Source of the DNA: Candidatus Amesbacteria bacterium | GTDB taxonomy: Bacteria > Patescibacteriota > Microgenomatia > CAZETR01 > Amesbacteraceae | Length of the DNA stretch: 64,000 nt | NCBI GenBank assembly: GCA_963736875.1 | Contig: CAVTQH010000002.1 | Location: forward strand, 199,927 to 263,926 | Direction: 5' to 3' | Part shown: positions 1,558 through 54,384 of the stretch, piece by piece | How the letters are laid out: every line of letters starts with the position of its first letter | Position numbering within the stretch: position 1 is the first letter of the stretch | Program-made: the position numbers and the translations under genes | The notes under the pieces: model-generated | The model's database searches: none | Seen by the model: the letters and a program-made list of their open reading frames with translations, nothing else | What the model was told of the DNA's origin: nothing

Positions 1558-2542
1558 AATCTCTCATCGCACCATAGTCGTAGCTGCGGTTACGGTATTT
1601 CTCTTTTGGCTGGTATTTAAAATTTGGGATCTGCTTCTGCTTCTTTTTATTTCAGTCATCATCATGTCAGCCTTAAAACCCGCAGTGGATTACTTGGAAC
1701 GTGCCAAGCTCCCCCGGAGTGTGGCGATTATTCTTGTTTACGTTTTACTCTGGGTTTTTCTGGGTTTGGTATTTGCCGGCATTATCCCTCCCCTGGTGGA
1801 GCAAACCAGAAAATTGGTTAATCTTATCCCTTCAGCCTTAAACAATATCCGGTACTTGGATATTCATCAGCAGGAAATCACCGCCCAAATAATTTCCGGC
1901 ATCGGCAGCCTGCCCGAAAATGTTTTCCGTATCACTTCGGGGATATTCGGAAACGTGCTGAATGTTATCACTACAATAGTCATCTCCTTCTACCTGCTTC
2001 TGGAAAGAAAACATCTGGATCAGTATCTTGCTGATTTTTTAGGTACCAAAACCAGCCCCAGGATTTCCGGATTAATTACCGAAATAGAAAATAAATTAGG
2101 CAGCTGGGTTCGGGGTGAACTTATTCTGATGACCGCAATCGGGGTAACCACGTACATCGGTCTCAGGCTGCTGGGTCTGGAAACCGCTCTGCCTTTGGCC
2201 ATACTGGCCGGGATGCTGGAAGTAATTCCCAACGTCGGACCTACGGTCTCGGCCATTCCCGCCGTAATTATTGCCCTCCTTATTCATCCTCTGCTGGCTT
2301 TATCCACAGTGGCTTTATACATTCTTATTCAGGCTCTGGAAAATAATTTTTTAGTCCCCCAGGTGATGCGCAAAACCACCGGGGTCAATCCCCTGGTAAG
2401 TATTTTAGGCCTGATGATAGGGTTTCGTCTGGCAGGCATTGCCGGGGCAATTCTGGCTATCCCCACAATTTTGGTTATTCAGGCTATAGGACTCCACTTC
2501 TTTTCCCTGTCACACCTGGAAGAAATTTCCGATACCGACTGA
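1529..2542 (+). CDS. AI-2E family transporter (UPF0118/PerM-like permease)
   Basis: A 337-aa 8-TM protein with the typical AI-2E length and hydropathy layout. Its start overlaps the miaA stop. Confidence 0.55.
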   Translation: MGKIAPQKIEISHRTIVVAAVTVFLFWLVFKIWDLLLLLFISVIIMSALKPAVDYLERAKLPRSVAIILVYVLLWVFLGLVFAGIIPPLVEQTRKLVNLIPSALNNIRYLDIHQQEITAQIISGIGSLPENVFRITSGIFGNVLNVITTIVISFYLLLERKHLDQYLADFLGTKTSPRISGLITEIENKLGSWVRGELILMTAIGVTTYIGLRLLGLETALPLAILAGMLEVIPNVGPTVSAIPAVIIALLIHPLLALSTVALYILIQALENNFLVPQVMRKTTGVNPLVSILGLMIGFRLAGIAGAILAIPTILVIQAIGLHFFSLSHLEEISDTD

Positions 2543-2562
2543 AAAAGTGTAAAATACCCCTG

Positions 2563-2828
2563 CCTGGAGGTAGGCGGCTACTCCGACGTCACGTCGGAGA
2601 GGAAAGTCCAGACAACTGAAGGCAGGGTGCCCCGTGTAAGCGGGGACGCGCAAGCGCTAGTTTAGAGCAACAGTGACGAACCGAGGTCATGCTCGGGTGA
2701 AACGGGCAATCCTCCCCGTTGCAACCTCCGATTTGGCCGATAAAGACGGAAGCCTTCCCGAGGCCTAAAGCTTGAGGGCATCAGACAGATTGCCGCTAAA
2801 ACAGAATCTGGCTTACTCACCTCCAGGC
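2563..2828 (+). ncRNA. rnpB: RNase P RNA, bacterial type A, reduced size (~265 nt)
   Basis: Universal motifs are present: GGAAAGUCC (gagaggaaagtccagac), AAGGCAGGGUGCC, GCGCAAGCG and the 3' ACAGAAUCUGGCUUA. P1 is formed by cctggaggt (2563-2571) pairing with acctccagg (2819-2827). Confidence 0.7.
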
Positions 2829-2851
2829 AACTTTTAAGATATAATTGTTTC

Positions 2852-3013
2852 ATGATCAATCCCGAATTATTTACCAACAGGGCGGCATTTCAGGGTCTCG
2901 TCTCCCTGATTTTTGGTGTGCTCGTTCTGATGTTTCCCAAGCTCTTAAACTATCTGATCGCTTTCTATTTCATTTTCACCGGCCTGTCCGCGGTCTTACC
3001 CTATCTTCGCTGA
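2852..3013 (+). CDS. small hydrophobic membrane protein, 53 aa (MINPELFTNRAAFQGLVSLIFGVLVLMFPKLLNYLIAFYFIFTGLSAVLPYLR)
   Basis: An ATG-initiated ORF below the 60-aa track cutoff with two predicted TM helices. It overlaps a less plausible 80-aa track ORF read in another frame. Confidence 0.3.
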   Translation: MINPELFTNRAAFQGLVSLIFGVLVLMFPKLLNYLIAFYFIFTGLSAVLPYLR

Positions 3014-3014
3014 C

Positions 3015-3569
3015 ATGCCGTATCTGCTGGATTTACCGGAGACAGATTTCAAATCCCGGCCGATTCTGTTCATCGACCTGGAAATGACCGGATTGGATGT
3101 TGAAAAACACGAAATTGTGGAAATTGCCGCGCTCCTGGTTCATCAGCCGGACTTTCAGGTAGTCAATTCTTTTTATACCAAAGTTAAACCCGTCCATCTC
3201 CAAACCGGCGACCCCAGATCACTGAAAATAATAAACTTTTCCGAAAAAAGCTGGGCCGATGCAATACCGCTCCGCGAAGCCCTGCAGGAATTGGCGGACT
3301 TTGCTCCCAACTGCCTTCTGGCGGGTTGGTGTGTCCAGAATGAATGGGATTTTTTAAACTATAGCCTTCAGAAAGAGGGGATACCTTATTTTTATGACCA
3401 TCGTCTGATAGAAGTCTTCAGTCTGGCCTACACCCGTTTTTACCATGATCCGGACATGAAATTTATAAGTCTTTCCCGCGTTGCCCGTAAGTTGGGAATA
3501 TATATCGATCAGCACAAACCCGACTCAGATATCCGTGCGACCTACGAAATCTTCAGGAAATTAATTTAA
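3015..3569 (+). CDS. orn: DEDDh 3'-5' exonuclease, oligoribonuclease (Orn)-like
   Basis: ILFIDLEMTGLD (Exo I motif), a later W..QNEWDF motif and a C-terminal H...D...DI segment match Orn / the DnaQ-like fold. Confidence 0.55.
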   Translation: MPYLLDLPETDFKSRPILFIDLEMTGLDVEKHEIVEIAALLVHQPDFQVVNSFYTKVKPVHLQTGDPRSLKIINFSEKSWADAIPLREALQELADFAPNCLLAGWCVQNEWDFLNYSLQKEGIPYFYDHRLIEVFSLAYTRFYHDPDMKFISLSRVARKLGIYIDQHKPDSDIRATYEIFRKLI

Positions 3570-8741: not shown

Positions 8742-10100
8742 CTACAAATCAGTCTCCTGTAATTTCCCGATCAGTGCCTGTTTTTCGTTCGGTAATCCCT
8801 TTTCCACTACCTCGTTAAAAATATATTCCAGGTATTTTCCCACCAGCGGTCCGGGGGTGATATTTTTGATTTTCATCACATCCGCGCCGCCGATTTTCAG
8901 ATCAGTCACGGAAAACGGTTGTTTCTGGACCTGTACCAGGCGTTTTTTAAATTCTTCCAGCCGCCAGCTGGTTTCCCTGGCTCCGCCCCCCAGCCTGTCC
9001 CCGGTTCGGAGTGCAAGCATCTCCGGGATATTTTCCACCCCCGCATTTTTTATAAACCGTCTGATGGCGCTGTCCGTCTGATTTTCATCCACGGTAAATT
9101 GATGCCACCTGACCAGCCTGACAAACTTCTGCTTCTGCTCATTGGAAAATCTCAGTCTTTCGGCAATTTTAAAGGCGATTTTTTCCCCCTCCATTTCGTG
9201 GTTATAAAAAGTAATTCTTCCGTCTGCATATACTTTCTGGGTTTTAACTTTACCCACATCATGAATTAACGTAGCCAGCCGGGTAATCGGATCTTTGGAA
9301 GGACAAAGTCTTAAAGCCTCCACACTGTGGGTTCCGACATCGTAAATATGGTGTCTGCCGGGACTTTTTTGCTCCACTCCGAAAGTTGCTCCCATTTCGG
9401 CAAGTATAATTTCCCCCAGCCCGCAATTTCGCAGTAGGAGATATCCGTCAGCCGGGTAATCCGAAGCAAAAATTTTCAGAAGTTCATCCCTTACCCTTTC
9501 CCCCGATATTTGTCTGATTTTTTCGGCATTGTTTTTAATCGCTCCGAAAGTCTCCTCCTCTATGGCAAATCTCAGTTGAGTGGCAATTCTCACAGCCCGC
9601 ATCATCCGCAGGGCATCTTCACCAAACCGGGCATCAGGGCTTCCCACACATTTAACTACCTTCGCTCTGACATCCTCCGCCCCTCCGAAAAAATCCAGCA
9701 ATTCATATTTTCCGGTCCTGACTTGCTTTAAAGCCATGGCGTTGATCGTAAAATCCCGTCGCTCCAGATCCTGCCTTAAGGTTTCCCCCCATTCCACCGC
9801 GTCGGGGTGTCTGTGATCCGTATATTCCTTTTCAGTCCGGTAGGTGGTGATTTCATAAGGCCGTTTGCCGTCACCGGCGGAAATTCCTACGGTTCCGAAT
9901 TTATTGTCATAATAAGCTTCCGGATAAAGTGCTAATATTTGCTCAGGGTTGGCGTTTGTCGTAAAGTCCCAGTCATATTGCGGCCGGTCCAGCATGACAT
10001 CTCTTACCACTCCGCCCACGATATAAATTTCATATCCGTTTTTGGTAAATTTTCTGATTATTTCCTGCACCTGTCCGGGGGGCTTTAAGGCAATTTCCAT
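8742..10100 (-). CDS. cca: CCA-adding tRNA nucleotidyltransferase with C-terminal HD domain
   Basis: IVGGVVRD...DFT head domain of the poly(A) polymerase/CCA family, with an HD-domain tail. Confidence 0.75.
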   Translation of the reverse strand: MEIALKPPGQVQEIIRKFTKNGYEIYIVGGVVRDVMLDRPQYDWDFTTNANPEQILALYPEAYYDNKFGTVGISAGDGKRPYEITTYRTEKEYTDHRHPDAVEWGETLRQDLERRDFTINAMALKQVRTGKYELLDFFGGAEDVRAKVVKCVGSPDARFGEDALRMMRAVRIATQLRFAIEEETFGAIKNNAEKIRQISGERVRDELLKIFASDYPADGYLLLRNCGLGEIILAEMGATFGVEQKSPGRHHIYDVGTHSVEALRLCPSKDPITRLATLIHDVGKVKTQKVYADGRITFYNHEMEGEKIAFKIAERLRFSNEQKQKFVRLVRWHQFTVDENQTDSAIRRFIKNAGVENIPEMLALRTGDRLGGGARETSWRLEEFKKRLVQVQKQPFSVTDLKIGGADVMKIKNITPGPLVGKYLEYIFNEVVEKGLPNEKQALIGKLQETDL

Positions 10101-10127
10101 ACTGCTAAAATTGTAACATGCTCAAAG

Positions 10128-11696
10128 ATGAACTTATCTCCGCTCTGCTTGATCCAAAAGGGCCTGATCACCCCCGGTCAGGTAAACGATTTTCTTCACC
10201 CCCAGCATCCTCTGGAAATTACCCCTTCCCGGCTGGGTTTATCAAAACAGGCAATCACCCGGGCAAAAAAGCTCGTTGACCGGCACATTTCAGCCGGTCA
10301 CCCCATAGCTGTTTACGGAGATTATGATGTCGACGGAATTTGCGCCACCGCTATTGTTTGGGAAACCCTGTATCCGCTTTCCCGTCAGGTTTTTCCCTAT
10401 ATTCCTGATCGCCGTGCAGAAGGTTACGGTCTGACAAACGCCGGTATTGACCACTGTCTGGCCAAAGGTGCCAAACTCATAATTGTTCTGGACAGCGGTA
10501 TTGTTGCCGCAAAAGAGATTAAATACTGCCGGGATAAAGGTTGTGACATTTTAGTCATCGACCATCATCAGCCGGAAAGTACACCGCCCCGTCCCACGGC
10601 ACTTATCCATTCCACTGCCACATCTGCTGCCGGTCTGGCCTGGTTTTTTGTGAGGGAGTTTCAAAAAAATCCGGATTCGGAGTCGCTTTCACTGGTGGCA
10701 ATTTCCGTCATCTGTGACCTGGTGCCGCTTACCGGCGTCAACCGGAGTCTGGCAAAATTCGGATTGGAGCAGTTAAACATTACCACCCGCCCGGGGTTGT
10801 TGGCTCTTATTTCCCAATCGGGGATTACCCCGGGCCAAATCGGTCCTTATGAAGTCGGTTTTATCATCGGCCCGCGTTTAAATGCCATGGGGAGGTTAGA
10901 ACACGCCATAGACAGTTTAAGGCTTCTTTGCACCACCGACGCGGACAGGGCTCATAAGTTGGCCGCTACTTTGGGAGAAACCAATCGCCTGCGTCAGGAT
11001 ATGACTCAGAAATCATCCGACCACGCCATTTCGCTTTTTGTAAATCAAAACCTGCCCCGGCTTTTAATTGCCGCCGATCCTGATTATGACGAGGGGATTA
11101 TCGGTCTGGTTGCAGCCAGGCTGGTGGAAAAATATTTCCGTCCGGCGATTGCCGTCAGTGTCGGCCGGGAAAAAAGCAAAGCTTCGGCCAGATCCGTCCC
11201 CGGCTTCCACATCACCGGATTTTTACGGCAATTTACTTCTCTGTTTGAATCGGTCGGGGGTCACGAAATGGCTGCCGGTTTTACTTTTCCGACAGCCAAA
11301 TTGGATGAAGTTAAAACCCGTTTGCAAAAACAGGCCGGAAAAGCAATTACTCCTGAAATGCTTATTAAAAACCAGCGGATTGACGCCGTGGTGCCGGTGG
11401 ATGTTTTGGATTGGGATTTATGCACCGCCCTGGAACAATTTACCCCGTTTGGCATCGGCAATCCCAGGCCGGTTTTTAAATCCCATAAAATTCCCGTTGC
11501 AAATTTTAAAAGAGTCGGTCAGACGGCCAAACATCTCAAATTCAGTGCCGGGGGAATTGACGCAATTTTCTTTAACGCTCCGGACCGTGTAGAGCAAAAA
11601 TTATCCGCCGCCGACCTGGTTTATCATTTAAACCCCCATGTTTATCAGGGTATTGCCGGTATTCAATTGGTTATTAAAGATTTAAAATCTGCCTGA
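10128..11696 (+). CDS. recJ: single-stranded-DNA-specific exonuclease RecJ
   Basis: The DHH motif is IAVYGDYDVDGICATAIV...ILVIDHH, followed by DHHA1. Confidence 0.8.
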   Translation: MNLSPLCLIQKGLITPGQVNDFLHPQHPLEITPSRLGLSKQAITRAKKLVDRHISAGHPIAVYGDYDVDGICATAIVWETLYPLSRQVFPYIPDRRAEGYGLTNAGIDHCLAKGAKLIIVLDSGIVAAKEIKYCRDKGCDILVIDHHQPESTPPRPTALIHSTATSAAGLAWFFVREFQKNPDSESLSLVAISVICDLVPLTGVNRSLAKFGLEQLNITTRPGLLALISQSGITPGQIGPYEVGFIIGPRLNAMGRLEHAIDSLRLLCTTDADRAHKLAATLGETNRLRQDMTQKSSDHAISLFVNQNLPRLLIAADPDYDEGIIGLVAARLVEKYFRPAIAVSVGREKSKASARSVPGFHITGFLRQFTSLFESVGGHEMAAGFTFPTAKLDEVKTRLQKQAGKAITPEMLIKNQRIDAVVPVDVLDWDLCTALEQFTPFGIGNPRPVFKSHKIPVANFKRVGQTAKHLKFSAGGIDAIFFNAPDRVEQKLSAADLVYHLNPHVYQGIAGIQLVIKDLKSA

Positions 11697-14939: not shown

Positions 14940-14954
14940 TCAGCCCCGATAACT

Positions 14955-15194
14955 ATGGGAATATTTAATTTGCTGGGTTTAATCCGCCGGATACTGTTTT
15001 TTTCCATTCTTTTATCTCTGGCCTGGAAATTGTCTTCAATGATAGTTCTTCCCGCTTCTTCCCCGGCACCTTTACCCGTAAATCTTGCCCCGGTGGCTTT
15101 ACCGGATCATCCGGTACCGGAAATTAACCGCCAAAAATGTTTTTATTATCGACCGGGCCTCCCGGACGGTGCTGATGGCCAAAAATGCCGATGA
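14955..15194 (+). other. orphan signal-peptide ORF, probable displaced N-terminus of the downstream carboxypeptidase (needs a +1 shift near 15120-15135)
   Basis: MGIFNLLGLIRRILFFSILLSLAWKLSS...PVPEI is read in frame 0. The carboxypeptidase homology (TAKNVFIIDRAS...) continues in frame 1. The junction lies in ccaaaaatgttttta. Confidence 0.35.
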
Positions 15195-15855
15195 CCGGAT
15201 TTATCCTGCTTCCACCACCAAGATGATGACTGCCATCGTCTCTTACGAAAAATATTCTCTTCACGAGCCTCTGGAAGTCAGCCGCTCCTACCCCGAAGGG
15301 ACAACTATCCATCTCCAGCCGGGAGAACAGGTAACAGTGGAAAATCTGCTTTACGCCATGCTTGTCCAATCAGCAAACGATGCTGCCGAAGTTCTGGCGG
15401 CAGCCTACCCGTCAGGCAGGGAAGTTTTTATAAATGAGATGAATGCTAAAGCCGATGCCATGCATTTATTTAATACCCGTTTTCAAAATCCCACCGGCCT
15501 TGACCAGGAAGGCCATTTCTCCTCGGCAGCCGATCTGGCCCGCCTGGCTGATTATCTGCTTCAGTCTCCGTATTTAGCCAAAATTGTAGCTACCCAGAAC
15601 GCAGTCATTGCCTCGGCCGATTATTCCTCTTTTCATCCGTTATCAAATATCAATAGTCTGTTGGGAAATATTACCGGGGTATTGGGTGTAAAAACCGGAT
15701 TTACCGACAAGGCAGGGGAATCCCTGGTTACCTTAGTCAGCCGGGACGGTCACGAAGTGATAATTTCCCTTTTGGGCAGCACCGACCGTTTTACCGACAC
15801 CACCAACCTGATTGAATGGATCTATTCGGCTTTTACCTGGCCTCGTCAGAAGTAA
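15085..15855 (+). CDS. D-alanyl-D-alanine carboxypeptidase (peptidase S11, PBP5/6-like)
   Basis: SxxK (ASTTKMMT), SxN (SANDAA) and KTG (KTGFT) are present. The TTG start at 15085 leaves no signal peptide, see the previous feature. Confidence 0.7.
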   Translation: MPRWLYRIIRYRKLTAKNVFIIDRASRTVLMAKNADDRIYPASTTKMMTAIVSYEKYSLHEPLEVSRSYPEGTTIHLQPGEQVTVENLLYAMLVQSANDAAEVLAAAYPSGREVFINEMNAKADAMHLFNTRFQNPTGLDQEGHFSSAADLARLADYLLQSPYLAKIVATQNAVIASADYSSFHPLSNINSLLGNITGVLGVKTGFTDKAGESLVTLVSRDGHEVIISLLGSTDRFTDTTNLIEWIYSAFTWPRQK

Positions 15856-16930: not shown

Positions 16931-17977
16931 ATGGTTCGCACGCGTTTTGCCCCTTCTCCCACGGGTTTTTTACATATCGGCAGTTTGCGGACTGCTCTTT
17001 ACTCTTTCACACTGGCTAAAAGCTCCCAAGGTCAGTTTTTATTAAGGATAGAAGACACGGACCAAAAAAGGGAGGTCAAAGGAGCGGTTGAAAGTATTTA
17101 TAATAGTCTCAATAAATTCGGAATTTCCTGGGACGAACCGCCGGTTATCCAAAGCCAAAGAGCCCGGGAGGGGGTTTATATCGGGGCGGCGGAAAAACTG
17201 GTACAGCAGGGTCAGGCCTTTTATTGTCAATGCGAAGCCAGAAATGCCAAAATCCAGGGATTCAGCGGGATTCTTCGCGACCCCTGCCGGGACAAAAATT
17301 TGTCGCACGGCGCAATTAAACTCCGGGTTCCGGACGATCAGAAAGTCTCTTATCATGATTTTGTTTTGGACAGGGAAATTATCTGGGACACCAATACGGT
17401 TGCCGATGCCACCCTGCTTAAATCCGAATCCATGGGGCGGTTACCCACGTATCATCTGGCGGTGGTGGTGGATGACGTATTCATGCGCATATCCCATGCT
17501 CTCCGCGGCCACGACTGGCTTCCCAGCACCCCGATACATCTTTTAGTTTATAAATTTCTGGGATTTGAGTGTCCGGAAATCGGACATCTGACTGATATCC
17601 AATCATCCAAAGGAGGAAAACTATCCAAAAGAAAAGATTCCGTATTCTGTGAGAAGTTTTTGGATGACGGATATCTGCCTGAAGCCCTCTTAAATTTTGT
17701 CATGCTTTTAGGCTGGGCACCAAAGGATAACCGGGAAATGTATACTCTGTCGGAATTTGTCCAGTTTTTTGATCCTAAAGGATTTCAAAAATCAAATCCG
17801 TTATTTCTTCCGGCCAAACTTGACTGGTTTAACGGTCAGTATATCAGACAGAAATCGGATACAGAACTTATTCAGCTCGTGAAACCATACATGAAAAGTC
17901 AAATAACGGACATAATACTTACCCGAATAATGCCTTTAATCAAGGACAGAATAGTAAAACTTAACGGACATAAATAA
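16931..17977 (+). CDS. gltX: glutamyl-tRNA synthetase, catalytic core (348 aa; C-terminal domain disrupted, see next feature)
   Basis: RFAPSPTGFLHIGSLRTALYSF (HIGH), KLSKR (KMSKS) and a Cys cluster CQC...C. It stops at the TAA at 17975 inside the region homologous to GluRS 'LLWLNHHYI...'. Confidence 0.7.
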   Translation: MVRTRFAPSPTGFLHIGSLRTALYSFTLAKSSQGQFLLRIEDTDQKREVKGAVESIYNSLNKFGISWDEPPVIQSQRAREGVYIGAAEKLVQQGQAFYCQCEARNAKIQGFSGILRDPCRDKNLSHGAIKLRVPDDQKVSYHDFVLDREIIWDTNTVADATLLKSESMGRLPTYHLAVVVDDVFMRISHALRGHDWLPSTPIHLLVYKFLGFECPEIGHLTDIQSSKGGKLSKRKDSVFCEKFLDDGYLPEALLNFVMLLGWAPKDNREMYTLSEFVQFFDPKGFQKSNPLFLPAKLDWFNGQYIRQKSDTELIQLVKPYMKSQITDIILTRIMPLIKDRIVKLNGHK

Positions 17978-18298
17978 TTTACTGTCGCCTTTTATATCAG
18001 CTACCGGAAGATATCCGGCCGGAATTATATGCTTCAAACCCGGAAGTCATTTAGTCTCGGTATTTGAAACTATTAAAGCACAGTGATTTTACCAATTCGG
18101 AATCTTTAAATTCGGAATTCAAAAAGGAAATTGACAGGCTGAATATTAAAACCGGAGACTACTTTATGAACATGCGGGTAGCTTTAATGGGTTCCCGTTC
18201 CACCCCTCCCGATTACCGAATCGGCGGTAATTTTGGGTAAAGAGGAGTCACTGCGAAGAATTAATAACGCTCTTGAAATGCTAAGCATTAAACAATGA
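17974..18298 (+). pseudogene. gltX: disrupted 3' part of gltX encoding the anticodon-binding domain
   Basis: GluRS C-terminal homology (LPEDIRPELY..., IKTGDYFMNMRVALMGSRSTPP, ITESAVILGKEESLRRINNALEML) is readable only across frames: frame 2 to 1 near 17975, an in-frame TAG at 18052-18054, then frame 1 to 2 near 18210. Confidence 0.5.
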
Positions 18299-19224
18299 AT
18301 CGTAAATCTGCCCTCAACACATCCCTTTTTCGGGCTCGGCTCAAGCTTAAACACATCCAGTCGGAAAATCTGCTTACCGGCCATCATCCCCGGGCAGTTG
18401 CTCTGCTGGAAGCGGCAGGTGTCCGTCCCGGCGGCCTCCGTGCACATGCCGCAAAACTTCTGGCAGCGGGGGCTACGGCCACCACCATGGCCCTGTCACC
18501 GTTTCCCTTATTCCCGGCAGCGGCTCTTCCTGAATCTGCCCGCCATGTTTCAGCCTTTCCCCTGCACCAGCGTTCCCAGCTGGTATCACTTTTCCAGGGA
18601 ATATTACCTCCCGCCCCCAGACCGCTTTTTGAAGCTGAAGAAACCCAAATCAGCCAAATCCTGCATGATCTGTACGGTATCCATGCCACAGCGGAACTCG
18701 AAGGCAACCGGCTTAACACCGACTACGGCTATATCGGGGCGGAGCAGCATCTTCCCCGCTATCCGGGAGATTCAGCGGCCAACCACGGTACGCTGGTCGA
18801 AAAGGGGATTACCCCCGGCCGGGGAGCCTGGGGGTACTTTGCCTATTCCAAAGAACAGCTCACTCCGGATTTGATCGCCAAAGAAAAATATTACGTGGCG
18901 GTTCAGACTCTTTATCTTCCCGATTGGGAAACCCGCTTAAGTTATCTGCGTGACTGGTACAAATACCGCAAAGTAGTGGTAGCCAATCCCAGAACCGGCC
19001 GGGCAATTGTTGCGGTGGTTGCCGACTCCGGACCGGCTTACTGGACCGGAAAACATTTCGGCGGGTCTCCGGAAGTAATGAATTATCTGGAGTCCAAAGA
19101 TGGCCGGCAAAAAGGTCCGGTAATTCTGTTTTTTGTCGATGATCCCGAAGACAAGGTACCCCTCGGACCTTTGGAGTACAATTTAGAGCAGAACCCATTA
19201 TTATTAGCCACTCGGGAAGTATGA
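18295..19224 (+). CDS. hypothetical protein with C-terminal RlpA-like double-psi beta-barrel (DPBB)-like segment
   Basis: KVVVANPRTGRAIVAVVADSGPAYWTGKHFGGSPEVMNYL resembles the DPBB core of RlpA/expansin-like proteins. The N-terminal 130 codons are GC-rich and may not be coding. Confidence 0.3.
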   Translation: MNRKSALNTSLFRARLKLKHIQSENLLTGHHPRAVALLEAAGVRPGGLRAHAAKLLAAGATATTMALSPFPLFPAAALPESARHVSAFPLHQRSQLVSLFQGILPPAPRPLFEAEETQISQILHDLYGIHATAELEGNRLNTDYGYIGAEQHLPRYPGDSAANHGTLVEKGITPGRGAWGYFAYSKEQLTPDLIAKEKYYVAVQTLYLPDWETRLSYLRDWYKYRKVVVANPRTGRAIVAVVADSGPAYWTGKHFGGSPEVMNYLESKDGRQKGPVILFFVDDPEDKVPLGPLEYNLEQNPLLLATREV

Positions 19225-19562
19225 GTAAAATATTTTACGATCATTTGGTTATCAGAGAGGAAATTGATTTCGAGCTTAACCGCTTTCAAATCGATCCCGA
19301 GGAGCAGGAAGAATTAATAAGTCTGATCGATCAGACTCTCCATCACCATATTTTAAACGTCATCTTAAATCACTTGCCCAAAGAAAAGCATACAGAGTTT
19401 ATTTCCCGGCTTCATGCCAAGCCGGATGATGATACCCTGATTGATTATTTAAAAACTCATGCCCACCCTGAAATTGAAGCCGAAATCAAAAAACAAGCCG
19501 CCAAGATCAAAAAAGAAATCCTGGCTGATCTCAAAAAATCCTCCCGCCGTACTAAATCTTAG
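19221..19562 (+). CDS. hypothetical protein, 113 aa, acidic/helical
   Basis: ORF only. Confidence 0.25.
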   Translation: MSKIFYDHLVIREEIDFELNRFQIDPEEQEELISLIDQTLHHHILNVILNHLPKEKHTEFISRLHAKPDDDTLIDYLKTHAHPEIEAEIKKQAAKIKKEILADLKKSSRRTKS

Positions 19563-21684
19563 CTTTTTTCAAAAGCAGGGAATTGGTAATCACCGAGACT
19601 GAAGATAATGCCATAATAAGTCCCGCCAGCTCCGGTTTGAGTATCAGTCCCCAAGGAGCCAACACTCCGGCGGCAATCGGAATTCCCAAAACGTTATAAA
19701 TCAGGGCAAAAAACAAATTTTCCCTGATTTTATTCATGGTTTTTCTGGACAAATTAATAGCCGCCGTGACATCACCGGGATCATTTTTAACCAATACCAC
19801 TTCCCCGCTTTCGATTGCCACATCGGTTCCCGATCCCATGGTAATTCCCAGATCGGCAGCAGCCAGTGCCGGCGCATCATTTATCCCGTCACCTACCATG
19901 GCCACGGTTTTGCCGGCTGCCTGAAGCTTCCTGATTTCCCCGGTTTTGTTTTCCGGTAATACTTCAGCTAACACGTTTTCTATTCCCAGCCCGGAAGCTA
20001 CTGCTCTGACCGTTTTCTCGTTGTCGCCGCTTAAAAGCCACACGTCCATACCCAGGCGTTTCAGCCTTTTAATCGCATTATTGCTTTCCGCTCTCACTTT
20101 ATCCGCAACTGCGATAAGTCCCAGCATCTTTTTATCTTTGGCCAGAATAACAGCGGTCTTGCCTTCATTTTCCCATTTTCCCGTCTCTTTCCCGGTGAAT
20201 TTAATATGATTTTCCGCCATCATTTTTTTGTTTCCCAGAAAATACTTTACCCCCCTGATCCTCCCCGTCACTCCCTGCCCGGGTATGGCTGTAAAATCGT
20301 CAACATCTTCAATTTTCAATCCGCCTGATTTGGCCTTTTCGTAAATACATTTAGCCACGGGATGTTCAGAATTTCGTTCCAGACTTCCCGCCAGCTCGTA
20401 ACACCTCCGGAGAGGAAATATCGGTTACTTCCAGTTTTCCCTCGGTTAAGGTTCCGGTTTTATCAAAAACCACGGTATCGATTTTTCCCGCTTTTTCCAA
20501 AGCTTCCCCGCCTTTAATTAAAATGCCGTGAGTAGCTCCCAATCCCGTCCCTACCATAATGGCCGTGGGGGTGGCCAGCCCCAAAGCACACGGGCAGGCG
20601 ATTACTATCACCGAAACCATTGCCAGGACGGCATATGTCAATGATGCCTGCAAAACCACATACCACACTCCGAATGTAACTAAGGCAACAATTAACACCG
20701 CCGGTACAAACCAGCCCGATACCCGGTCCGCCAGATTCTGGATCGGGGCTTTTGTCTCCTGGGCTTCTTCAATTAATTTGCTGATTCGCGCTATTGTCGT
20801 TTGTTCTCCCACTCTGGTCACTCTGATTTCAATTACCCCCATCTGATTTATCGTTCCTCCGGACAACTTTGTCTCCCTCTTTTTTATCAACAGGCAGGCT
20901 TTCACCTGAAAGCATCGACTCGTTTACCGCCGTCTGTCCCCGGATTATTTCCCCGTCAATGGGGATTGTTTGCCCGGGCCTGACCAAAACCATATCCCCG
21001 ATTTTTAATTTTTCCGTTTCCGTCTCGGTTTCCTGACCGTTTCTGATCACAGTGGCGGTTTTAGGCTGAAGCTGCCCCAATTTCCTGATTGCCTCCGAGG
21101 TTTTTCCTTTGGCCCTGGCTTCCAGCCATTTGCCCAAAAGCACAAAAGTGATTAATAAAGCCGAAGTTTCAAAATAGGTAGCCTCTTTCCCCCAAATTAA
21201 ATTTATGACGCTGAATCCGTAGGCTACCGACGTGCCGATGGCGATTAGTGAATCCATATTAAAAGACTTTGACCGCAAGTGCCGACCATGCCCCCCGGTA
21301 AAATCTTCTGCCCAAAATAAACTGTACGGGAGTGGCCAGGATCCACCCCAAAAAAGGCGGAAGCATCATAATCGGTGCGGACAATATTCCCGCCCAAATA
21401 AATCTTTTTTTATACTCCCGTATTTCCGTTTCCTTCCCTATTTCTCTTTCAGCGCCGCTCCCCGCGATTTCAATTTTTGCCCCGTATCCCGCTTTTTCCA
21501 CCGCTTCCACCAGCTGTCCGGCCAAAACTTGGTTTTCGGCAATCACTCTGGCCTTTTCCGTCGCATAATTTACGTTTGCTTCCGTCACTCCGGGGATTTT
21601 TCTCAGACTTCTTTGAATCAAAAGTGCACATGATGTGCAGTCCATGCCCGTGATTTCCAGATTTACCTGCTTTTTCCCAGTCAT
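19552..21684 (-). pseudogene. copA: copper-translocating P1B-type ATPase CopA, split into four ORFs by three frameshifts
   Basis: The pieces are 21259-21684 (HMA GMDCTSCA plus TM1-2), 20829-21278 (A domain), 20366-20905 (CPC, DKTGTLT) and 19552-20358 (GDGINDAP, C-terminal TMs). Each junction needs a 1-nt shift: ...ALAVK|SFNMD, ...DKV|SGGTINQ and ...EVTD...|ELAGSLERNSEHP. Confidence 0.7.
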
Positions 21685-25054: not shown

Positions 25055-27475
25055 ATGGTTAAAAAAACACCCGCCCGGACCAACGAACTGAAGCTTTCCC
25101 GTGTATCTGCCTGGGCAGTGTTACTGCGCCAGCTGAAAAATCCGCTTTTATACATTCTTCTGGTTACCACCACTGTCGCTTTTCTTTTCGGTTCGCGTTT
25201 TTCTGCCCTGGTGGTTACCTGGATGATGTTTTTATCCGTTTTCCTGGGATTTTGGAACGAATTCCGGGCGGAGAAAACCATGGAGGATCTGTTAAAAAGG
25301 ATTTCCTTTACGGCTACGGTAATCAGAAACGGGACCAAACTAAGTCTTCCGGTTAAAGATATCCGGGTGGGGGATCATGTTCTGCTGTACCAGGGGGCGG
25401 TTGTTCCCGCGGACTTAAAGCTTCAAGAGGAGAAAGGATTGGAAGTCGATGAAGCGGTGATTACCGGTGAATCGGCTCCGGTTCATAAAAGCCGCGAAGA
25501 CGGACAGGTGTATATGGGAACAACTGTAGTTTCCGGAGAAGGCAGGGGGATTGTCACGGCCATCGGCACCGATACCAGATTCGGGGAAATCAGTGCCAGT
25601 GTGGCTTCAGTCCGGCCGGAAACTGAATTTCAGAAAGGTCTTAAATCCTTTGGTGTCCTGTTGGTTTGGGTTATCTCAACCATGGCTCTGGTGATTTTTG
25701 TTGTCAACTGGCTGTTGGGCAGATCCTGGATAGACTCCGCCCTTTTTGCTTTAGCGGTGGCTATCGGATTGACTCCGGAACTATTGCCTGTGGTGGTCAC
25801 CGTCAGTTTGTCCCATGGCGCCCGGCGTCTGGCCAAAAAAGACATTATTGTCAAGCAGCTGGTAGCCATTGAGGACCTGGGAAATATGGAGGTCCTCTGC
25901 TGTGACAAAACCGGCACTCTGACCGAGGGTAAACTGCAGTTGGTTTCCCACCAGAATCCCGAAGGGAAGGATAATCTGCGTGTTTTAGAGCTGGCTCTTA
26001 TCTGTAACTCCGCCGTTGTCCATCATAAAATTTTCGGTGATGCCATCGATTCAGCCATCTGGCAGCATGCCCAAAATCAGCGGATCAGACTTCCGGGAAA
26101 AATTACCAAAGTTCTGGAAATGCCCTTTGACTACGAACACCGGGCAATGTTTACTGTTGTCGAAGAAAATCACGACCGTACCTACATTTATAAAGGGGCT
26201 CCGGACGCGGTGATCGAAGCCAGCGCCGGTGACAAAAAAACCATTGCCGCACTTCATGCCAAAGTGGACAATTGGTATTCGTCAGGTTACAGGGTAATAG
26301 GAATTGCCACCAAACATGTTACCGCCTCCGAGCGTTACACTTTCTCCGACGCCCATCATTTGAAACTGGAAGGTTTTATTCTCTTTTCCGATCCGCCCAA
26401 ACCCGGGGTCAGAGCCGCCCTGGACCATTTTGAAAATTTAGGGGTGAAGCTGAAAGTGGTTACCGGTGACAATGAATTTGTCACCCGTAAAATCTGTCAG
26501 GAAATCGATTTAAAATGCGACAAAATTCTTACCGGACCGGAAGTGTCCCAAATGACCGAATCCGAATTAATCGATGTGGTCTGGCAGACGGACGTTTTTG
26601 CCCGTATGACGCCGGACAAAAAACTCCGGGTGATCAGGGCCTTGAAGCACGGTAACCATACGGTTGCTTACATCGGTGACGGTATTAATGACGCTCCGGC
26701 GCTTCACGAAGCCGATGCCGGCATATCGGTCGAAACCGCTGTTGATGTGGCCAAAGATACGGCCTCCATCGTTCTGATGCGCAAAAGTCTGAATGTGATT
26801 GTTGAAGGTGTGGCTGAAGGCCGCCGCACTTTTGTCAATACCCTCAAATATATTTTGATGGGTACCAGCAGCAATTTCGGGAATATGTTTTCCATGGCCG
26901 GGGCTTCCTTTATACTGCCGTTTCTTCCCATGACACCATCCCAGATTCTTCTGACCAATGCCATGTACGATGTTTCCCAGTTAAGCATCCCGACCGACAA
27001 TGTTGACCCGGAAGAACTTCATCAGCCCAAAAAATGGGATATCGGCATTATCCGCCGTTATATGGTCTTTTTCGGTCCGATCAGTTCCCTGTATGATTTT
27101 ATGACCTTCGGGGTAATGTATTTTCTGTTCCATGCCCGAGGCAGCCTCTTTCAGACCGGCTGGTTTATAGAATCACTGGCCACACAAATCATGGTGATTT
27201 TTATTATCCGTACCAACCGTATACCCTTTTATAAAAGCCGTCCCGGGTTAATTCTGACAGTTGCCAGTCTGGGAGCGGTTTTTGTTGCCATGTGTCTGCC
27301 GTTTTCCCCTCTTTCCCGTTTTTTTGAATTTTCACCTCTGCCCCCGCTTTACTTCCTGATCCTGGTTCTCATGGTTCTTACGTATCTCGTATTGGTTGAA
27401 GTGGGTAAAAAATTTCTTCTCCGCCGGGCTCTTACCCCTGCTGCCCCGGCTAAACTATTAAAGCCGCAGACTTAA
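25055..27475 (+). CDS. mgtA: Mg2+-importing P-type ATPase (MgtA/MgtB type)
   Basis: LLRQLKNPLLYILL, CCDKTGTLTEG, VTGDNEFV, GDGINDAPALHEADAGISV and a 10-TM layout. It is preceded by a ~580-bp non-coding leader. Confidence 0.7.
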   Translation: MVKKTPARTNELKLSRVSAWAVLLRQLKNPLLYILLVTTTVAFLFGSRFSALVVTWMMFLSVFLGFWNEFRAEKTMEDLLKRISFTATVIRNGTKLSLPVKDIRVGDHVLLYQGAVVPADLKLQEEKGLEVDEAVITGESAPVHKSREDGQVYMGTTVVSGEGRGIVTAIGTDTRFGEISASVASVRPETEFQKGLKSFGVLLVWVISTMALVIFVVNWLLGRSWIDSALFALAVAIGLTPELLPVVVTVSLSHGARRLAKKDIIVKQLVAIEDLGNMEVLCCDKTGTLTEGKLQLVSHQNPEGKDNLRVLELALICNSAVVHHKIFGDAIDSAIWQHAQNQRIRLPGKITKVLEMPFDYEHRAMFTVVEENHDRTYIYKGAPDAVIEASAGDKKTIAALHAKVDNWYSSGYRVIGIATKHVTASERYTFSDAHHLKLEGFILFSDPPKPGVRAALDHFENLGVKLKVVTGDNEFVTRKICQEIDLKCDKILTGPEVSQMTESELIDVVWQTDVFARMTPDKKLRVIRALKHGNHTVAYIGDGINDAPALHEADAGISVETAVDVAKDTASIVLMRKSLNVIVEGVAEGRRTFVNTLKYILMGTSSNFGNMFSMAGASFILPFLPMTPSQILLTNAMYDVSQLSIPTDNVDPEELHQPKKWDIGIIRRYMVFFGPISSLYDFMTFGVMYFLFHARGSLFQTGWFIESLATQIMVIFIIRTNRIPFYKSRPGLILTVASLGAVFVAMCLPFSPLSRFFEFSPLPPLYFLILVLMVLTYLVLVEVGKKFLLRRALTPAAPAKLLKPQT

Positions 27476-30637: not shown

Positions 30638-33154
30638 ATGTCTCTGACTGCCACCATCGCATCTCTTTCCGGTTTATCGGGTACCGAAGCCCAAAATCGT
30701 CTGAAAAAGGAAGGTTACAACGAACTCCCTTCCCAAAAAAGCCACTCCTGGCTGGATATTTTGTTAAGCGTTTTCAAAGAACCCATGATTTTTCTTTTGG
30801 TGTTTACGGGTCTGATATATCTGTTTTTGGGTGAAGTCCCGGATGCATTAATGCTTCTGGGCGGGATTTTTATCGTCATCGGCATCACTTTTTTTCAGGA
30901 GCGCAAAACCGAGCGGGCTCTGGACGCTTTAAAAAATTTAAGCAGTCCCCGGGCTTTGGTTTTAAGAGACGGTCAGGAAATGCGGATTCCCGGCCGGGAA
31001 GTGGTGCGCGAAGATCTGATAGCCCTTCAGGAAGGGGACCGCATTCCCGCCGACGGTACCGTTCTTTCCTCCACCAACTTAAGCATTGATGAATCTCTTC
31101 TGACCGGTGAATCCCTGCCGGTTCGAAAAATAGACTGGAATAATCAGGCGGATTCAGTCCGGCCCGGAGGGGAAAACCTCCCCTATGTTTTTTCCGGGAC
31201 TTTGGTTACTCAGGGAAGGGCAATAGTCCGGGTTACCGCCACCGGTATCAAAACTGAAATGGGAAAAATCGGCAAATCACTGGAAACAATTCATGAAGAA
31301 GACACCCTGATTAAAAAAGAAACAGGCCAAATTATTAAAAAGTTTGCTTTAGCCGGACTGATTTTATGTCTGACGGTAGTAATTCTTTTCGGTTTAATCC
31401 GGGGTGACTGGATTCAGGGCTTGTTATCAGGTCTGACTTTATCCATCTCCATGCTGCCGGAAGAATTCGCGGTTATTCTGGTGGTATTTCTTACTCTCGG
31501 AGCCTGGCGTATGTCCAAATACCAGGTGCTTACCCGAAACACTGCTACCATCGAGACTTTAGGGGCAGCCACGGCTCTTTGTGTGGACAAAACCGGCACC
31601 ATCACCTTAAATCAGATTACTCTCGACGGATTATTAACCGACGGTGACTATTTTCCCTTTCCGCAATCCGACGGTCATATCCCCGACAAATTTCACTCTT
31701 TGCTTGATTATGCCATCCTTGCCAGCCAGCAGGATCCTTTCGATCCCCTGGAAAAAGCCATCAGAAAGGCCGGAAAGCAAATTCTTACTGAGTCGGAGCA
31801 CGACCATCACAATTGGAGACTGGTCCAGGAATATCCCCTGTCCCAAAAATTAATGTCTTTGTCCCACGTCTGGCAATCACCGGACTCAAAGCACTTTGTC
31901 GTTGCCGCCAAAGGGGCTCCGGAAGCAATTGCCGGGCTTTGCCGCCTGACCGGGGACGAGAAAGCCCGTCTGGAATCGCAAATTGACCGGCTGGCAAACA
32001 GGGGTTTGCGTTTAATCGGGGTTGCCAAAGCCTCCTTTCCCGGGGAAAAACTGCCGTCAAAACAGCAGGACTTTAACTTTGAATTTTTAGGCCTGATGGC
32101 CTTTACCGATCCTGTCAGGCCGGGAGTGGCGGCAGCTGTCCGGGAATGTTATACGGCAGGCCTTAGGGTGATTATGATCACCGGGGATTATCCGGGAACG
32201 GCTCAATACGTGGCCGGTCAGATCGGACTTAAAAATCCCGACCAGGTGATTACCGGCGGTGAGTTATCCGAATTATCACAGGAGGCAATCAGGGAGAAAA
32301 TAAAGACAACCAATATTTTCGCCCGGGTGGTCCCCGAACAAAAGCTGATTATTATTGATGCCCTCAAAGCAAATGGTGAAATTGTGGCCATGACCGGGGA
32401 CGGGGTTAATGATGCTCCGGCTCTCAAGGCAGCTCATATCGGCATTGCCATGGGTAAAAGGGGTACGGATGTAGCCCGGGAATCCTCGGATCTGGTTTTA
32501 TTGGATGACGATTTTTCCTCCATTGTGACGGCCGTCCGTACAGGCCGCCGGATTTTCGATAATCTCAAAAAGGCTGTTGTTTATATTTTTGCAGTCCATG
32601 CTCCCATCGCCGGAATTTCTTTACTGCCGATAATTTTTAACTGGCCGATGGTCCTTTTACCTGCCCATATCGCCTTTCTGGAACTGATCATCGATCCGGC
32701 CTGCTCCCTGGTTTTTGAATCGGAAGTGCCGGAATCTGACATTATGAGCCGTCCCCCGCGTCCTTTAAATTCCTCACTGTTTACCAAAAAAAGCATTATC
32801 ACCGGCTTGGTTCAGGGATTGAGTATTTTGATTTTTGTTTCTGCTGTTTATATTTATGCCATCACAAGCGGCCGCGGAGATACTTTCTCCAGGACCATCA
32901 CCTTTGCCACTTTGGTTTTTTCCAACCTGCTTTTGATTCTTACCAATCTCTCCTGGTCCCGGAATATTTTTAAGACTCTCATCGGCCGTAACCGGGCATT
33001 GTACTGGGTTCTGGGAATGGCCGCCTCGGGCTTGCTGATTATTCTCCGTTCCCCGGCTGTCAGCTCTCTCTTTCACTTTTCTCCCCTGACTGGAGTGACT
33101 TACTTCTGGCATTTGCCGCCGGACTTATCGGCGTCATTTGGTTCGAAGTTCTGA
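30638..33154 (+). CDS. cation-transporting P-type ATPase, P2 (Ca2+-ATPase-like)
   Basis: CVDKTGTITLNQ, MITGDYPGTA, MTGDGVNDAPALKAAHIGIAMG and a 10-TM topology. Confidence 0.75.
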   Translation: MSLTATIASLSGLSGTEAQNRLKKEGYNELPSQKSHSWLDILLSVFKEPMIFLLVFTGLIYLFLGEVPDALMLLGGIFIVIGITFFQERKTERALDALKNLSSPRALVLRDGQEMRIPGREVVREDLIALQEGDRIPADGTVLSSTNLSIDESLLTGESLPVRKIDWNNQADSVRPGGENLPYVFSGTLVTQGRAIVRVTATGIKTEMGKIGKSLETIHEEDTLIKKETGQIIKKFALAGLILCLTVVILFGLIRGDWIQGLLSGLTLSISMLPEEFAVILVVFLTLGAWRMSKYQVLTRNTATIETLGAATALCVDKTGTITLNQITLDGLLTDGDYFPFPQSDGHIPDKFHSLLDYAILASQQDPFDPLEKAIRKAGKQILTESEHDHHNWRLVQEYPLSQKLMSLSHVWQSPDSKHFVVAAKGAPEAIAGLCRLTGDEKARLESQIDRLANRGLRLIGVAKASFPGEKLPSKQQDFNFEFLGLMAFTDPVRPGVAAAVRECYTAGLRVIMITGDYPGTAQYVAGQIGLKNPDQVITGGELSELSQEAIREKIKTTNIFARVVPEQKLIIIDALKANGEIVAMTGDGVNDAPALKAAHIGIAMGKRGTDVARESSDLVLLDDDFSSIVTAVRTGRRIFDNLKKAVVYIFAVHAPIAGISLLPIIFNWPMVLLPAHIAFLELIIDPACSLVFESEVPESDIMSRPPRPLNSSLFTKKSIITGLVQGLSILIFVSAVYIYAITSGRGDTFSRTITFATLVFSNLLLILTNLSWSRNIFKTLIGRNRALYWVLGMAASGLLIILRSPAVSSLFHFSPLTGVTYFWHLPPDLSASFGSKF

Positions 33155-33749: not shown

Positions 33750-34589
33750 TCAAAGGCTGAATCCTTTTTTGGCAGTCATTACTAATACATGTCCCCATCG
33801 GGATTTGCGCCGGTGGTATTTAACGCTGTTTAATCCTAAAAAACCGGTTATTTCCCGGCCGTACGGAAAAAACCACCAGCCCGCTACCGGATTGTGGCAA
33901 TAAGTCACAATCCGTGTCACACCGGCTCGTTTGGCCAGATCCGCGAGTCTTCCGGCTGACAGGTCATCCTCAAAACCGAATGCCCATTTGTTCCGCCGGA
34001 TAAGTATCTGTTTGGCCACCATAAACGGAATATCCCCGGAGTTGGGAGCCGCGATTACCAATATTCCTCCCGGCTTGACCAGCCGCCACATGATTTTGAT
34101 CATCTCAATTTTCCTGTCATCGGAAAAATGTTCAATCACCCCGCCGTTCCAGACCACGTCAAAAAATTTCCCGGGAAATTTCATGGAAAATGCATCCCGG
34201 CAATAAAATTTCGCTTTCAGTTTTTTTAATTTGAAGTATTTTTTTTGGAAAGCCAATGCTTTCTTCGAGATATCTACCAGATACAACTCCGCTCCCAAGC
34301 CGGCCAGATATGCCGAGGCCATTCCTGTACCGCTTCCCACTTCCAGAATTTTCTTTCCCTTTAAATTTTTTCCCATCACCTCTTCCAATTCTTCAAAATG
34401 GGCAATATAGTCAGGATTTGCATCAGCCTCGGAAGAATAACTTTCAGCAACTTTATCCCATAATTTTTCGGATTGCATACACCGATTGTACCAGTAACCT
34501 AAAGTTTGATAAAAAATATCCCGGTAATATAACTGGTCCCTTTCAGTAATCGGTTTCCGGTCAATATCCCTCCGTGGCTGTTTTCCCAA
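33750..34589 (-). CDS. class I SAM-dependent methyltransferase
   Basis: Motif I ILEVGSGTGMASAYL and post-I LYLVDIS. The true start is probably the internal M at ~34481 (MQSEKLW...), because the track ORF overlaps the Memo fragment. Confidence 0.6.
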   Translation of the reverse strand: MGKQPRRDIDRKPITERDQLYYRDIFYQTLGYWYNRCMQSEKLWDKVAESYSSEADANPDYIAHFEELEEVMGKNLKGKKILEVGSGTGMASAYLAGLGAELYLVDISKKALAFQKKYFKLKKLKAKFYCRDAFSMKFPGKFFDVVWNGGVIEHFSDDRKIEMIKIMWRLVKPGGILVIAAPNSGDIPFMVAKQILIRRNKWAFGFEDDLSAGRLADLAKRAGVTRIVTYCHNPVAGWWFFPYGREITGFLGLNSVKYHRRKSRWGHVLVMTAKKGFSL

Positions 34590-34990
34590 AGTTCCCAGTC
34601 AGTAGTTCCCAGTTTCTCCATGATCATCATTACCGTGGCCATCGCCGCCGGCGAATCCAGGTGGTTATCGTCGAACTTATACAAATTCAGGTAATCAAAA
34701 TTCCTGATGGTATTTATGGTCTGACTGTCATACTTTTCAGCCGGTTCAGGCAAATTATTATGGGAAAAATCCACACTCGCCACATATAAAGTGTTCTCCG
34801 GCATGATCTTGATGATAGCTTCAGCCATCCGCTTCAGAGTCTCCGGGGTATAACCGGGAGCGGTTAATATCGGCACAAATTCAGACCCGGTAAAAGCCTG
34901 TTTTAAATATTTTATGGGAACATTCACTCCGTGTTCATCACCAACCAGTTTGTCATCAATTACCAGTTGGCGGGAACTGCTGATTTAAGC
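34499..34990 (-). pseudogene. MEMO1-family (AmmeMemoRadiSam protein B-like) C-terminal two-thirds; N-terminal part missing or decayed
   Basis: ...LVIDDKLVGDEHGVNVPIKYL..., YVASVDFSHNN (DxSH) and NSHGGIL align with the C-terminal half of the intact Memo domain encoded at 35294-36904. The reading frame closes with a TAA at ~34990 and no Memo N-terminal motifs lie upstream in frame. Confidence 0.4.
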
Positions 34991-35293
34991 TGCAATACCG
35001 ATTTCCGGGCGATCGGGTAGTCGGGACTGCTTTCGGCCGTGGTGAACGTCCCGCCCCGCATCCGGAAATGGTTAGGGGAAAAAACTACAATAAACCGGGG
35101 ATTCTGGTTAATTTTATTTTATTGACGGCTCTGATGATTAAATCTTTTGCCAATTCGTGATGGGGAAGCACCACACCGCTGATACTCTGCCGGTTGCCCG
35201 GGATAACTTTATCAACCCTCAGCTCCCTGATTCCCAGGAAAACTGTCACTATAACTAAAATTAAAATCTTTTTCCGCATGGATAATACCGGGT

Positions 35294-37635: not shown

Positions 37636-38611
37636 ATGAAAAAATTTCTCATTTTTATCGGTTTGATTTTTATTTCGGTTATAACCCTGTTAATCTTGGG
37701 TCGACATTATTTTGGCCCGCCGGGTAAATCCGTGGAACAGCAGATTTTTACCGTTCCCGAAAAACAGCCGGATTTTAACCCGGTGCAAAGTCTTTCGGAT
37801 CAGGGTTTTATCAAAAATAAATCCGCTTTTTCATTTTTAAAAGAAAAGTTCACCCCGGGAAAAGAGGTTAAACCCGGCGGCTACTATCTTAAGTCAGAAT
37901 ATGTTTGCCTGGCAGGTTCTGGAAAAAATTACCGGCAAACCGGATTTGTTATGGCTTACCGTCTCCGGTTGCCCCCGGAAAGAACAGATCGGGGAAAAGC
38001 TGGCGGATCTTCTGGGATGGACTTCAAAGGAAGTAAAAGACTGGAATTCGCTTTATTCTGATTTTAAATCCGAGTATTTTGAAGGAGTTTATTACCCCGA
38101 CACATATTTGATTCCGGTTACGGAGTCAGCGGGTCAGATTGCCCGGCGTTTTATCGACCGTTTCAACACAAAATTTGCTCCCCTGGCTGACAAGTTTGTA
38201 GAGGCCAATATCAAATGGACGACCGGAGTAAAAATTGCCTCTCTGATCGCCCGCGAAGCCGCGGGAGACAGCGACATGCGCCTTATAGCCGGCATTATCT
38301 GGAACCGGCTGGACCAGGGGATGCGCCTGCAGATTGACGCCACCATGCAGTACACTCTGGGAAAACGCTCCGACGGCAGCTGGTGGGGACCCGTTGATTT
38401 GAGCCAAAAACAAAGCGATTCTCCCTACAATACCTATTTATATGAGGGTCTTCCCCCGACCCCCATCTGCAGCCCGGATATCAGGTATCTGGAAGCGGTC
38501 ATAAATCCCGAAAGTACCGATTGCCTCTACTATCTGCACGATTCCGGGGGTCAGATCCATTGTGCCAAAACTTATGCCGGCCACAAATCCAATATCAGTA
38601 AATACTTATAG
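37636..38611 (+). pseudogene. mltG: endolytic murein transglycosylase MltG (YceG-like), interrupted by an apparent 1-nt frameshift near 37895-37905
   Basis: The N-terminal TM plus FTVPEKQ...KPGGYYLKSEY runs in frame 1 (ORF 37636-38061). It continues as MFAWQVLEKITGKPDLLWL...EGVYYPDTYLI...IASLIAREA...SPYNTYLYEGLPPTPICSP in frame 2 (ORF 37901-38611). The junction is gaatatgtttgcc. Confidence 0.6.
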
Positions 38612-49629: not shown

Positions 49630-50009
49630 TTATATTATTCTTTCCAAATAGTCTGACTGATCAAACTTACCTGCGGTTAGATTGTCATTATCGATATAAA
49701 CCCATGATTTAATATAAATACCTTCAAACCTTACATTTTCTTCTACTCTATTGTAAGTCTTTGGGATTTTATTATAACCTTCACTCTTATCTAATGCGTT
49801 CAAAGCAACATCATTAATATCAAATAATAGTCCATATACCTTTGGAACACGAATTTGTAGTATCAATAGCTATATTAGCCTTACAGCGGTTATTTTAAAA
49901 AAAATTCCCAACCTTCTAGTATAGCTACTCCTAATAACCCGAAGTTATCTACACATCTAACCTTCATTTGATTTAAATCCATGTTTGAACCATAAGCAAA
50001 GTATTTCAT
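49630..50009 (-). pseudogene. AIG2/GGACT (gamma-glutamyl cyclotransferase-like) family gene, frameshifted at an A8/T8 homopolymer (~49888-49895)
   Basis: An N-terminal piece MKYFAYGSNMDLNQMKVRC... (start ~50009) and a C-terminal piece ...VYGLLFDINDVALNALDKSEGYNKIPKTYNRVEEN... (49630-49866) lie in different frames. Confidence 0.45.
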
Positions 50010-50096
50010 TTTCTGCCTACAAAATAACCCAGACGAAGTAGGAGGTAAAGGTATTTGTAGCTTTCATACTTGCTGGGCGTGAAACAATTGAAGAAG

Positions 50097-51818: not shown

Positions 51819-51870
51819 ATGTTTTTTAAATAGCGGTTATGGCCTTAAAATAGCCTTAAATTTCTTAATG

Positions 51871-52500: not shown

Positions 52501-52554
52501 GATGACCTATAGTCAAGTTTTACCGGGCGTGATCACATTATTTTAGACGACTTT

Positions 52555-54382: not shown

Positions 54383-54384
54383 AT

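Follow-up and report, generated by a model that had tools for sequence, protein, structure and literature searches.

The window, by which we mean the whole 64-kb stretch of DNA that was analyzed, comes from a Microgenomates (CPR) bacterium and carries gltX, the gene for glutamyl-tRNA synthetase (GluRS, or glutamate--tRNA ligase), on its forward strand, within a gene order common to the window and its relatives: an S11 peptidase, a 359-aa hypothetical protein on the reverse strand, gltX, a 309-aa hypothetical protein, a 113-aa protein, and a P-type ATPase. As written, gltX is an ATG-initiated open reading frame (ORF) of 348 aa at 16931-17977 (+), closed by a TAA at 17975-17977. An earlier, sequence-only reading of this region had described the catalytic core as intact, and this is borne out: the class I Glu/Gln catalytic domain (PF00749) is recovered in the 348-aa ORF with E = 1.5e-69, and the translation contains a HIGH-type motif ('HIGS', residues 14-17) and a KMSKS-type motif ('KLSKR', residues 239-243). 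The ORF also passes the bacterial gltX equivalog model TIGR00464, at 351.2 bits against a cut-off of 289.95. The anticodon-binding domain (PF19269) is not contiguous with the catalytic domain in the ORF as written; the 348-aa product ends at residue 348 and consists of the catalytic core followed, from residue 312 onward, by the anticodon-binding domain's first ~36 residues. No second gltX was found within the 64-kb window.

Immediately downstream lies a conserved hypothetical gene of 309 aa (18295-19224, +), whose protein has no Pfam match. The same reading had placed the start of this gene at the stop of the gltX remnant, and that is where it lies: its ATG at 18295 overlaps the ancestral gltX stop, TGA 18296-18298, as ATGA. 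The overlap is the same in the relative L165, where gltX occupies 765-2129 and the next gene 2126-3055.

Several features elsewhere in the window are recorded in their own right. A short RNase P RNA of ~269 nt lies at 2563-2831 (+); with the archaeal model RF00373 it exceeds the cut-off (88.8 vs. 84 bits), and with the bacterial class A model RF00010 its slightly higher score of 90.9 bits, over model positions 1-367, falls short of the required 100. It has the look of a bacterial RNase P RNA in reduced form. An island of low GC content at ~50000-56000 (34-39% GC vs. about 47% elsewhere) has defense-like content, comprising a 573-aa AAA_15/AAA_21 (AbiEii-like) ATPase, a DUF3761 protein, MazG-like and NERD nuclease-related proteins, and an unannotated 317-aa ORF; it was probably acquired horizontally. 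ARAGORN found no tRNA genes across the whole 64 kb (1-64000).

The nearest proteins to the gltX product are intact GluRS of 453-454 aa, with amino acid identities of 92% (P0001) and 90% (P0002), and with P0122, encoded by L165, closer still. At the nucleotide level, the four syntenic relatives are 94% (L165), 91.5% (L001), 88.7% (L166), and 86.6% (L002) identical to the window. A same-strain assembly or closer relative was not found in the genome-contig scan, in which the best identity was 68%, and among the matches listed in the metagenome-contig scan none exceeded 67% identity. DNA alignments with L165, L001, L002, and L166 indicate that the full span of gltX, as in intact relatives, is 16931-18298 (+), or 1368 nt in the window vs. 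1365 nt in L165 and L001. Beyond the TAA, GluRS homology continues for ~111 codons, corresponding to about residues 344-454 of the relatives, as far as the TGA at 18296-18298.

Alignment to L165, L001, and L166 resolves five 1-nt indels in the window's gltX; the alignment to L002 recovers these events too, with its gaps shifted by as much as 9 bases. None of the five occurs in any of the four relatives. The first is an insertion at 17961/17962, the T of CTTA, where relatives have the leucine codons CTC, CTG, or TTA and the window has C followed by TTA; it shifts the homologous frame (position mod 3) from 2 to 0. The second, an insertion at 18002 (18002-18003) in the context GC-TA-CC, shifts frame 0 to frame 1; L165 and L001 have A here, L002 and L166 have T, and the window has both. 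The third is a deletion between 18049 and 18050, which shifts frame 1 to frame 0 through the loss of a column that is C in L165 and L001 and G in L002 and L166. The fourth, an insertion at 18080 (GC-A-CAG), shifts frame 0 to frame 1 beside a column that is C in L165, L001, and L166 and A in L002, the window having C and then A. The fifth, an insertion at 18211 (18211-18212; CCC-GA-TTACC), shifts frame 1 to frame 2 where L165, L001, and L166 have A, L002 has G, and the window has G and then A. The homologous frame along gltX therefore runs 2, 0, 1, 0, 1, 2, and the scrambled remainder of the anticodon-binding domain (17964-18298, +; relatives' residues ~345-454) is read in frame 0 at 17964-18001, frame 1 at 18003-18049, frame 0 at 18050-18079, frame 1 at 18081-18210, and frame 2 at 18212-18298.

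The net change is +3 nt, so that gltX begins and finishes in the same frame, and the TAA at 17975-17977 exists only because of the first frameshift. The sequence-only reading was thus right that the anticodon-binding domain is disrupted and that homology extends past the TAA, and it underestimated the disruption: it had described two frameshifts and a single excursion from frame 2 to frame 1 and back, where alignment to the relatives gives five indels and the longer succession above. A TAG is indeed present at 18052-18054, as had been reported, but it is not in frame; it belongs to frame 1, and as a consequence of the third indel the homology at this point is in frame 0 ('LVSVFETIKA', 18050-18079).

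When the four inserted bases are taken out and the one missing position is padded, the result is an uninterrupted gltX of 454 aa that is stop-free over the 111 tail codons. With TIGR00464 the repaired protein scores 399.7 bits over profile positions 2-468 of 470, against 400.0 bits for the intact P0122, and it matches positions 1-141 of 141 of Pfam Anticodon_2 with E = 5e-23; this match of the conceptually repaired tail to the anticodon-binding domain is far beyond chance. The continuous ORF of ~455 aa that the earlier reading had set against its own claim of a disrupted gene is therefore obtained in silico, at 454 aa, with five single-base edits. Compared with the bacterial gltX of Microgenomates/Patescibacteria (TIGR00464; PF00749 and PF19269), the window's gene has a core 90-92% identical to P0002 and P0001, lies in the same gene order, and, after the five edits, encodes a protein co-linear with the whole model; it differs from intact gltX in that three frames are needed to read its last 111 codons and its ORF stops at residue 348.

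The identity of the affected bases is informative. At all four insertions, the added base and the one beside it are the two alleles of one column that is polymorphic among the relatives: C/T in the leucine codon, T/A at 18002, C/A at 18080, and G/A at 18211. The deletion after 18049 also falls on a polymorphic column (C/G). Under a null model, the chance of such a pattern per insertion is 0.21 when computed in the variable tail and 0.12 when the whole 2.3-kb alignment is used, so that its occurrence in four of four insertions has p of about 2e-4 to 2e-3, for a test that was designed post hoc. The five sites contain no homopolymer or slippery heptamer (contexts CTTAAC, GCTACC, GTCATTT, GCACAG, and CCCGATT), and no common sequence motif, such as a methylation motif, is apparent there. 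Four of the five indels lie within a patch of raised, mosaic divergence at 17701-18150 (+). The difference to L165 is 18% in 17901-18150, compared with 3.5% upstream, whereas the difference between L165 and L001 stays near 9%; 33 of the 45 differences to L165 use alleles found in other relatives, in an interleaved mosaic. Such a patch is what a consensus of mixed strain haplotypes would look like.

The relatives differ in the quality of their assemblies. Over the shared 2.3 kb, no private indels occur in L165, L001, or L002, which look like short-read or standard assemblies. L166 (ENA ERZ25039461 contig_174720, 23 kb, with Flye-style contig naming) is itself error-prone: its gltX (9727-11081) is called as three pieces of 61, 159, and 193 aa, split by private single-base insertions of its own at window coordinates of about 17078, 17635, 18254, and 18259, and many further single-base insertions are scattered across the locus. 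Artifacts of this kind do, then, occur in gltX of this lineage. The pattern of both alleles is seen in only one of five of L166's own insertions, and the signature is therefore not general to such assemblies. A further GluRS of 348 aa, P0077 (L167 2557-3610, JGI 3300063110), was considered as evidence for a naturally truncated family and rejected, as its stop lies near a contig end. It ends '...KDRI*' exactly where the first frameshift of the window falls; its stop, however, lies in an A/T run with only 7 nt of the 3.6-kb contig remaining, and homology ('KKL') goes on out of frame. The stop in P0077 is probably a contig-end error, and its agreement with the window's stop a coincidence.

gltX is not the only broken gene in the window, which contains at least four further frameshifted genes. 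The gene for an S11 D-alanyl-D-alanine carboxypeptidase (14940-15855, +) has an extra A at 15127, near its 5' end, where the window reads AATTAACCG and both L002 and L166 read AATTA-CCG; intact relatives are 299-310 aa long, and the longest ORF in the window is 256 aa with a TTG start. A heavy-metal P1B-type ATPase (19552-21684, -) is distributed over four consecutive ORFs in three frames, with its pieces in order (HMA, E1-E2 ATPase positions 2-71, E1-E2 ATPase positions 64-180, and Hydrolase positions 44-191). Relative to L002 it has an extra base at 20395, and the frame changes at least twice more, near 20.87 and 21.27 kb; the available homologs are partial close relatives, and base-level placement is therefore given for 20395 alone. 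Intact P1B ATPase paralogs are present at 25055-27475 and 30638-33154. An mltG/YceG-like gene (37636-38611, +) changes frame at about 37830-37900: a 324-aa homolog from L105 aligns over residues 6-89 in frame 1 and 67-324 in frame 2, and Pfam YceG positions 54-275 are found in the second mltG ORF. A Memo-like gene (34499-35408, -) appears split and is probably frameshifted, with Memo profile positions 126-246 in the ORF at 34499-34927 and the N-terminal part ('VVLPHHELA') in another frame at 35085-35408; the adjoining intact 536-aa ORF (35294-36904) appears, from its sequence, to encode a related Memo-type protein. A codon-usage frame plot, which was noisy, gave no frameshift candidates beyond those obtained from homology.

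We consider it probable, and hold this with some confidence, that the gltX indels are a consensus artifact, produced when strain variants were collapsed in an assembly that was prone to error and probably made from long reads. The sampled population would have included two or more strain haplotypes in a hypervariable 3' segment, and reads from these haplotypes would have been merged into a single consensus sequence, probably built from or polished with long reads. Where SNPs occurred, that consensus may have kept both alleles adjacent to each other (the four insertions) or neither of them (the one deletion), and the frame changes from the five indels, in the last 340 nt of the gene, would then have created the TAA at 17975 and the apparent 348-aa enzyme. 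In NCBI/ENA, the 348-aa product is recorded on one contig, 441,639 bp in length; for a metagenome contig from a CPR bacterium this is very long and suggests long reads. Bases of this sort are not readily invented in short-read contigs built from De Bruijn graphs.

There is precedent for such errors. The collapse of nearby allelic variants has been documented as a source of spurious ORF truncation and indel errors (PMC8445201), and gene-fragmenting indel errors described previously (Cosentino et al., 2021, PMC8445201; Kastor, PMC12007338) resemble those in the window in several respects: private single-base indels break conserved genes, they cluster at close allelic variants, and correction restores the ORF. 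The precedent differs in that it concerns a diploid eukaryote, whereas the 'alleles' in the window would be those of co-existing strains in a metagenome. It is also unusual for uniform error to place five errors within 250 bp and none in the flanking 2.9 kb, and the explanation therefore needs an assumption of local heterogeneity.

An alternative is that the indels record real and very recent pseudogenization of the 3' end: the frameshift at 17961 would have truncated GluRS, and the other four indels would then have gathered in the untranslated tail, with the cell kept alive by an impaired 348-aa enzyme, by another gltX copy elsewhere in the genome, or by a host. The stop and the frameshifts are, after all, present in the sequence as given, the indels cluster downstream of the first one as a loss of constraint would predict, and the other broken genes in the window could mean ongoing gene decay. 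CPR bacteria are, moreover, thought to depend on other organisms. Against this reading stands the state of the tail itself. The repaired gene was compared codon by codon with three intact relatives over the 3' 111 codons, giving dN/dS of 0.26 against L165, 0.16 against L001, and 0.13 against L002, near the values among the intact relatives themselves (0.18, 0.13, and 0.14). The first of these, the comparison to the closest relative, is somewhat above 0.18 and counts against the artifact. At sites where L165, L001, and L002 agree, changes private to the window comprise 7 synonymous and 3 non-synonymous substitutions; the same count gives 4 and 7 for L165 and 6 and 3 for L001, so that the window shows no excess. 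Across 17901-18150, the window has 12 substitutions absent from all four relatives, and L165 also has 12, without indels.

None of the signs of relaxed selection that were looked for past the first disruption was seen in the repaired tail, whether dN/dS near 1, an excess of private substitutions, or stops in the repaired frame over its 111 codons. A tail free of selection for long enough to gather four further indels would be expected to have acquired tens of neutral, mostly non-synonymous, substitutions as well as stops, and five indels to ~10-12 mostly synonymous substitutions is not the spectrum of natural decay. The repaired tail still looks to be under purifying selection, as judged from these codon comparisons, and the lack of a relaxed-selection signal implies that the indels, if they are biological at all, arose extremely recently. 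A genuine truncation, if very recent, would likewise show hardly any sign of relaxed selection. Mutation does not, however, explain why the inserted bases duplicate known alleles, and the 64-kb window offers no substitute gltX. Bases of the anticodon loop are identity elements of tRNA-Glu in E. coli (PMC9976931), and the loss of the anticodon-binding domain should therefore be costly. Altogether, we regard recent pseudogenization as unlikely.

The consequence that would follow from real indels deserves separate mention. That the bacterium lives with a GluRS missing approximately three quarters of its anticodon-binding domain is, in our estimation, quite doubtful. If true, the enzyme would be a natural 'minimal' GluRS that depends solely on the acceptor and D-arm to recognize tRNA-Glu and perhaps tRNA-Gln; alternatively, the cell would depend on a host or on a second synthetase. 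The collapsed-strain artifact is in better agreement with the observations at hand, and the suggestion of an error-ridden region, which the sequence-only reading had offered as one of two possibilities, is the one that we retain: the indels are private, leave no trace of relaxed selection, fall on polymorphic sites, and are accompanied by other frameshifted genes in the window.

The other of those possibilities, a tolerated, truncated GluRS of GluQRS-like size, fares poorly. GluQRS (YadB, tRNA glutamyl-Q34 synthetase) lacks an anticodon-binding domain by design and glutamylates a tRNA modification instead of charging tRNA-Glu, and a functional short GluRS paralog of this kind would accord with the length of the window's ORF (348 aa, near GluQRS size), with its class I Glu/Gln catalytic fold, with its intact catalytic core bearing HIGS and KLSKR, and with a sizeable partial score against the GluQRS models. 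The ORF is nevertheless below the cut-off of all five GluQRS models, including TIGR03838 and PRK05710 (best 197.3 vs. 276.7 bits), and above that of the bacterial gltX model (351 vs. 290 bits). The partial score reflects only shared similarity of the catalytic core, because the intact P0122 scores the same (197.6 bits). The nearest relatives are, further, full-length GluRS in the same syntenic slot, and the window's gene clusters at ≥90% identity with true GluRS in the gltX position; it is also followed by a complete remnant of the anticodon-binding domain at 17964-18298, for which GluQRS has no counterpart. Family models and synteny effectively rule out a GluQRS-like functional paralog, and we take this reading to be very improbable.

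Programmed recoding, in which the ribosome or RNA polymerase would shift frame at five sites to give a full-length protein, is hardly credible: the net frame change of zero (+3 nt) and the full conservation of the repaired protein would suit it, but it requires the frame to shift separately five times, forward and backward, in a stretch of 250 nt, at sites with no homopolymer or slippery heptamer motifs and none of which is common to any relative, with a TAA 14 nt after the first. Reassignment of TAA and TAG as sense codons was rejected, as the homologous frame changes at each site.

The main value of this locus is as a warning about quality: the contig carries local consensus errors, and gltX itself is ordinary. 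Gene-content and pseudogene statistics from this assembly need frameshift-aware correction first, given at least five affected genes in 64 kb. The signature of both alleles side by side may serve as a read-free diagnostic for indels that arise from collapsed strains. Taken at face value, the 348-aa ORF would point to a CPR bacterium in which an essential synthetase no longer has its anticodon-binding domain, and claims of such losses feed narratives of 'reduced translation machinery' in CPR organisms. The organism itself most likely has an ordinary, intact, bacterial-type GluRS of 454 aa.
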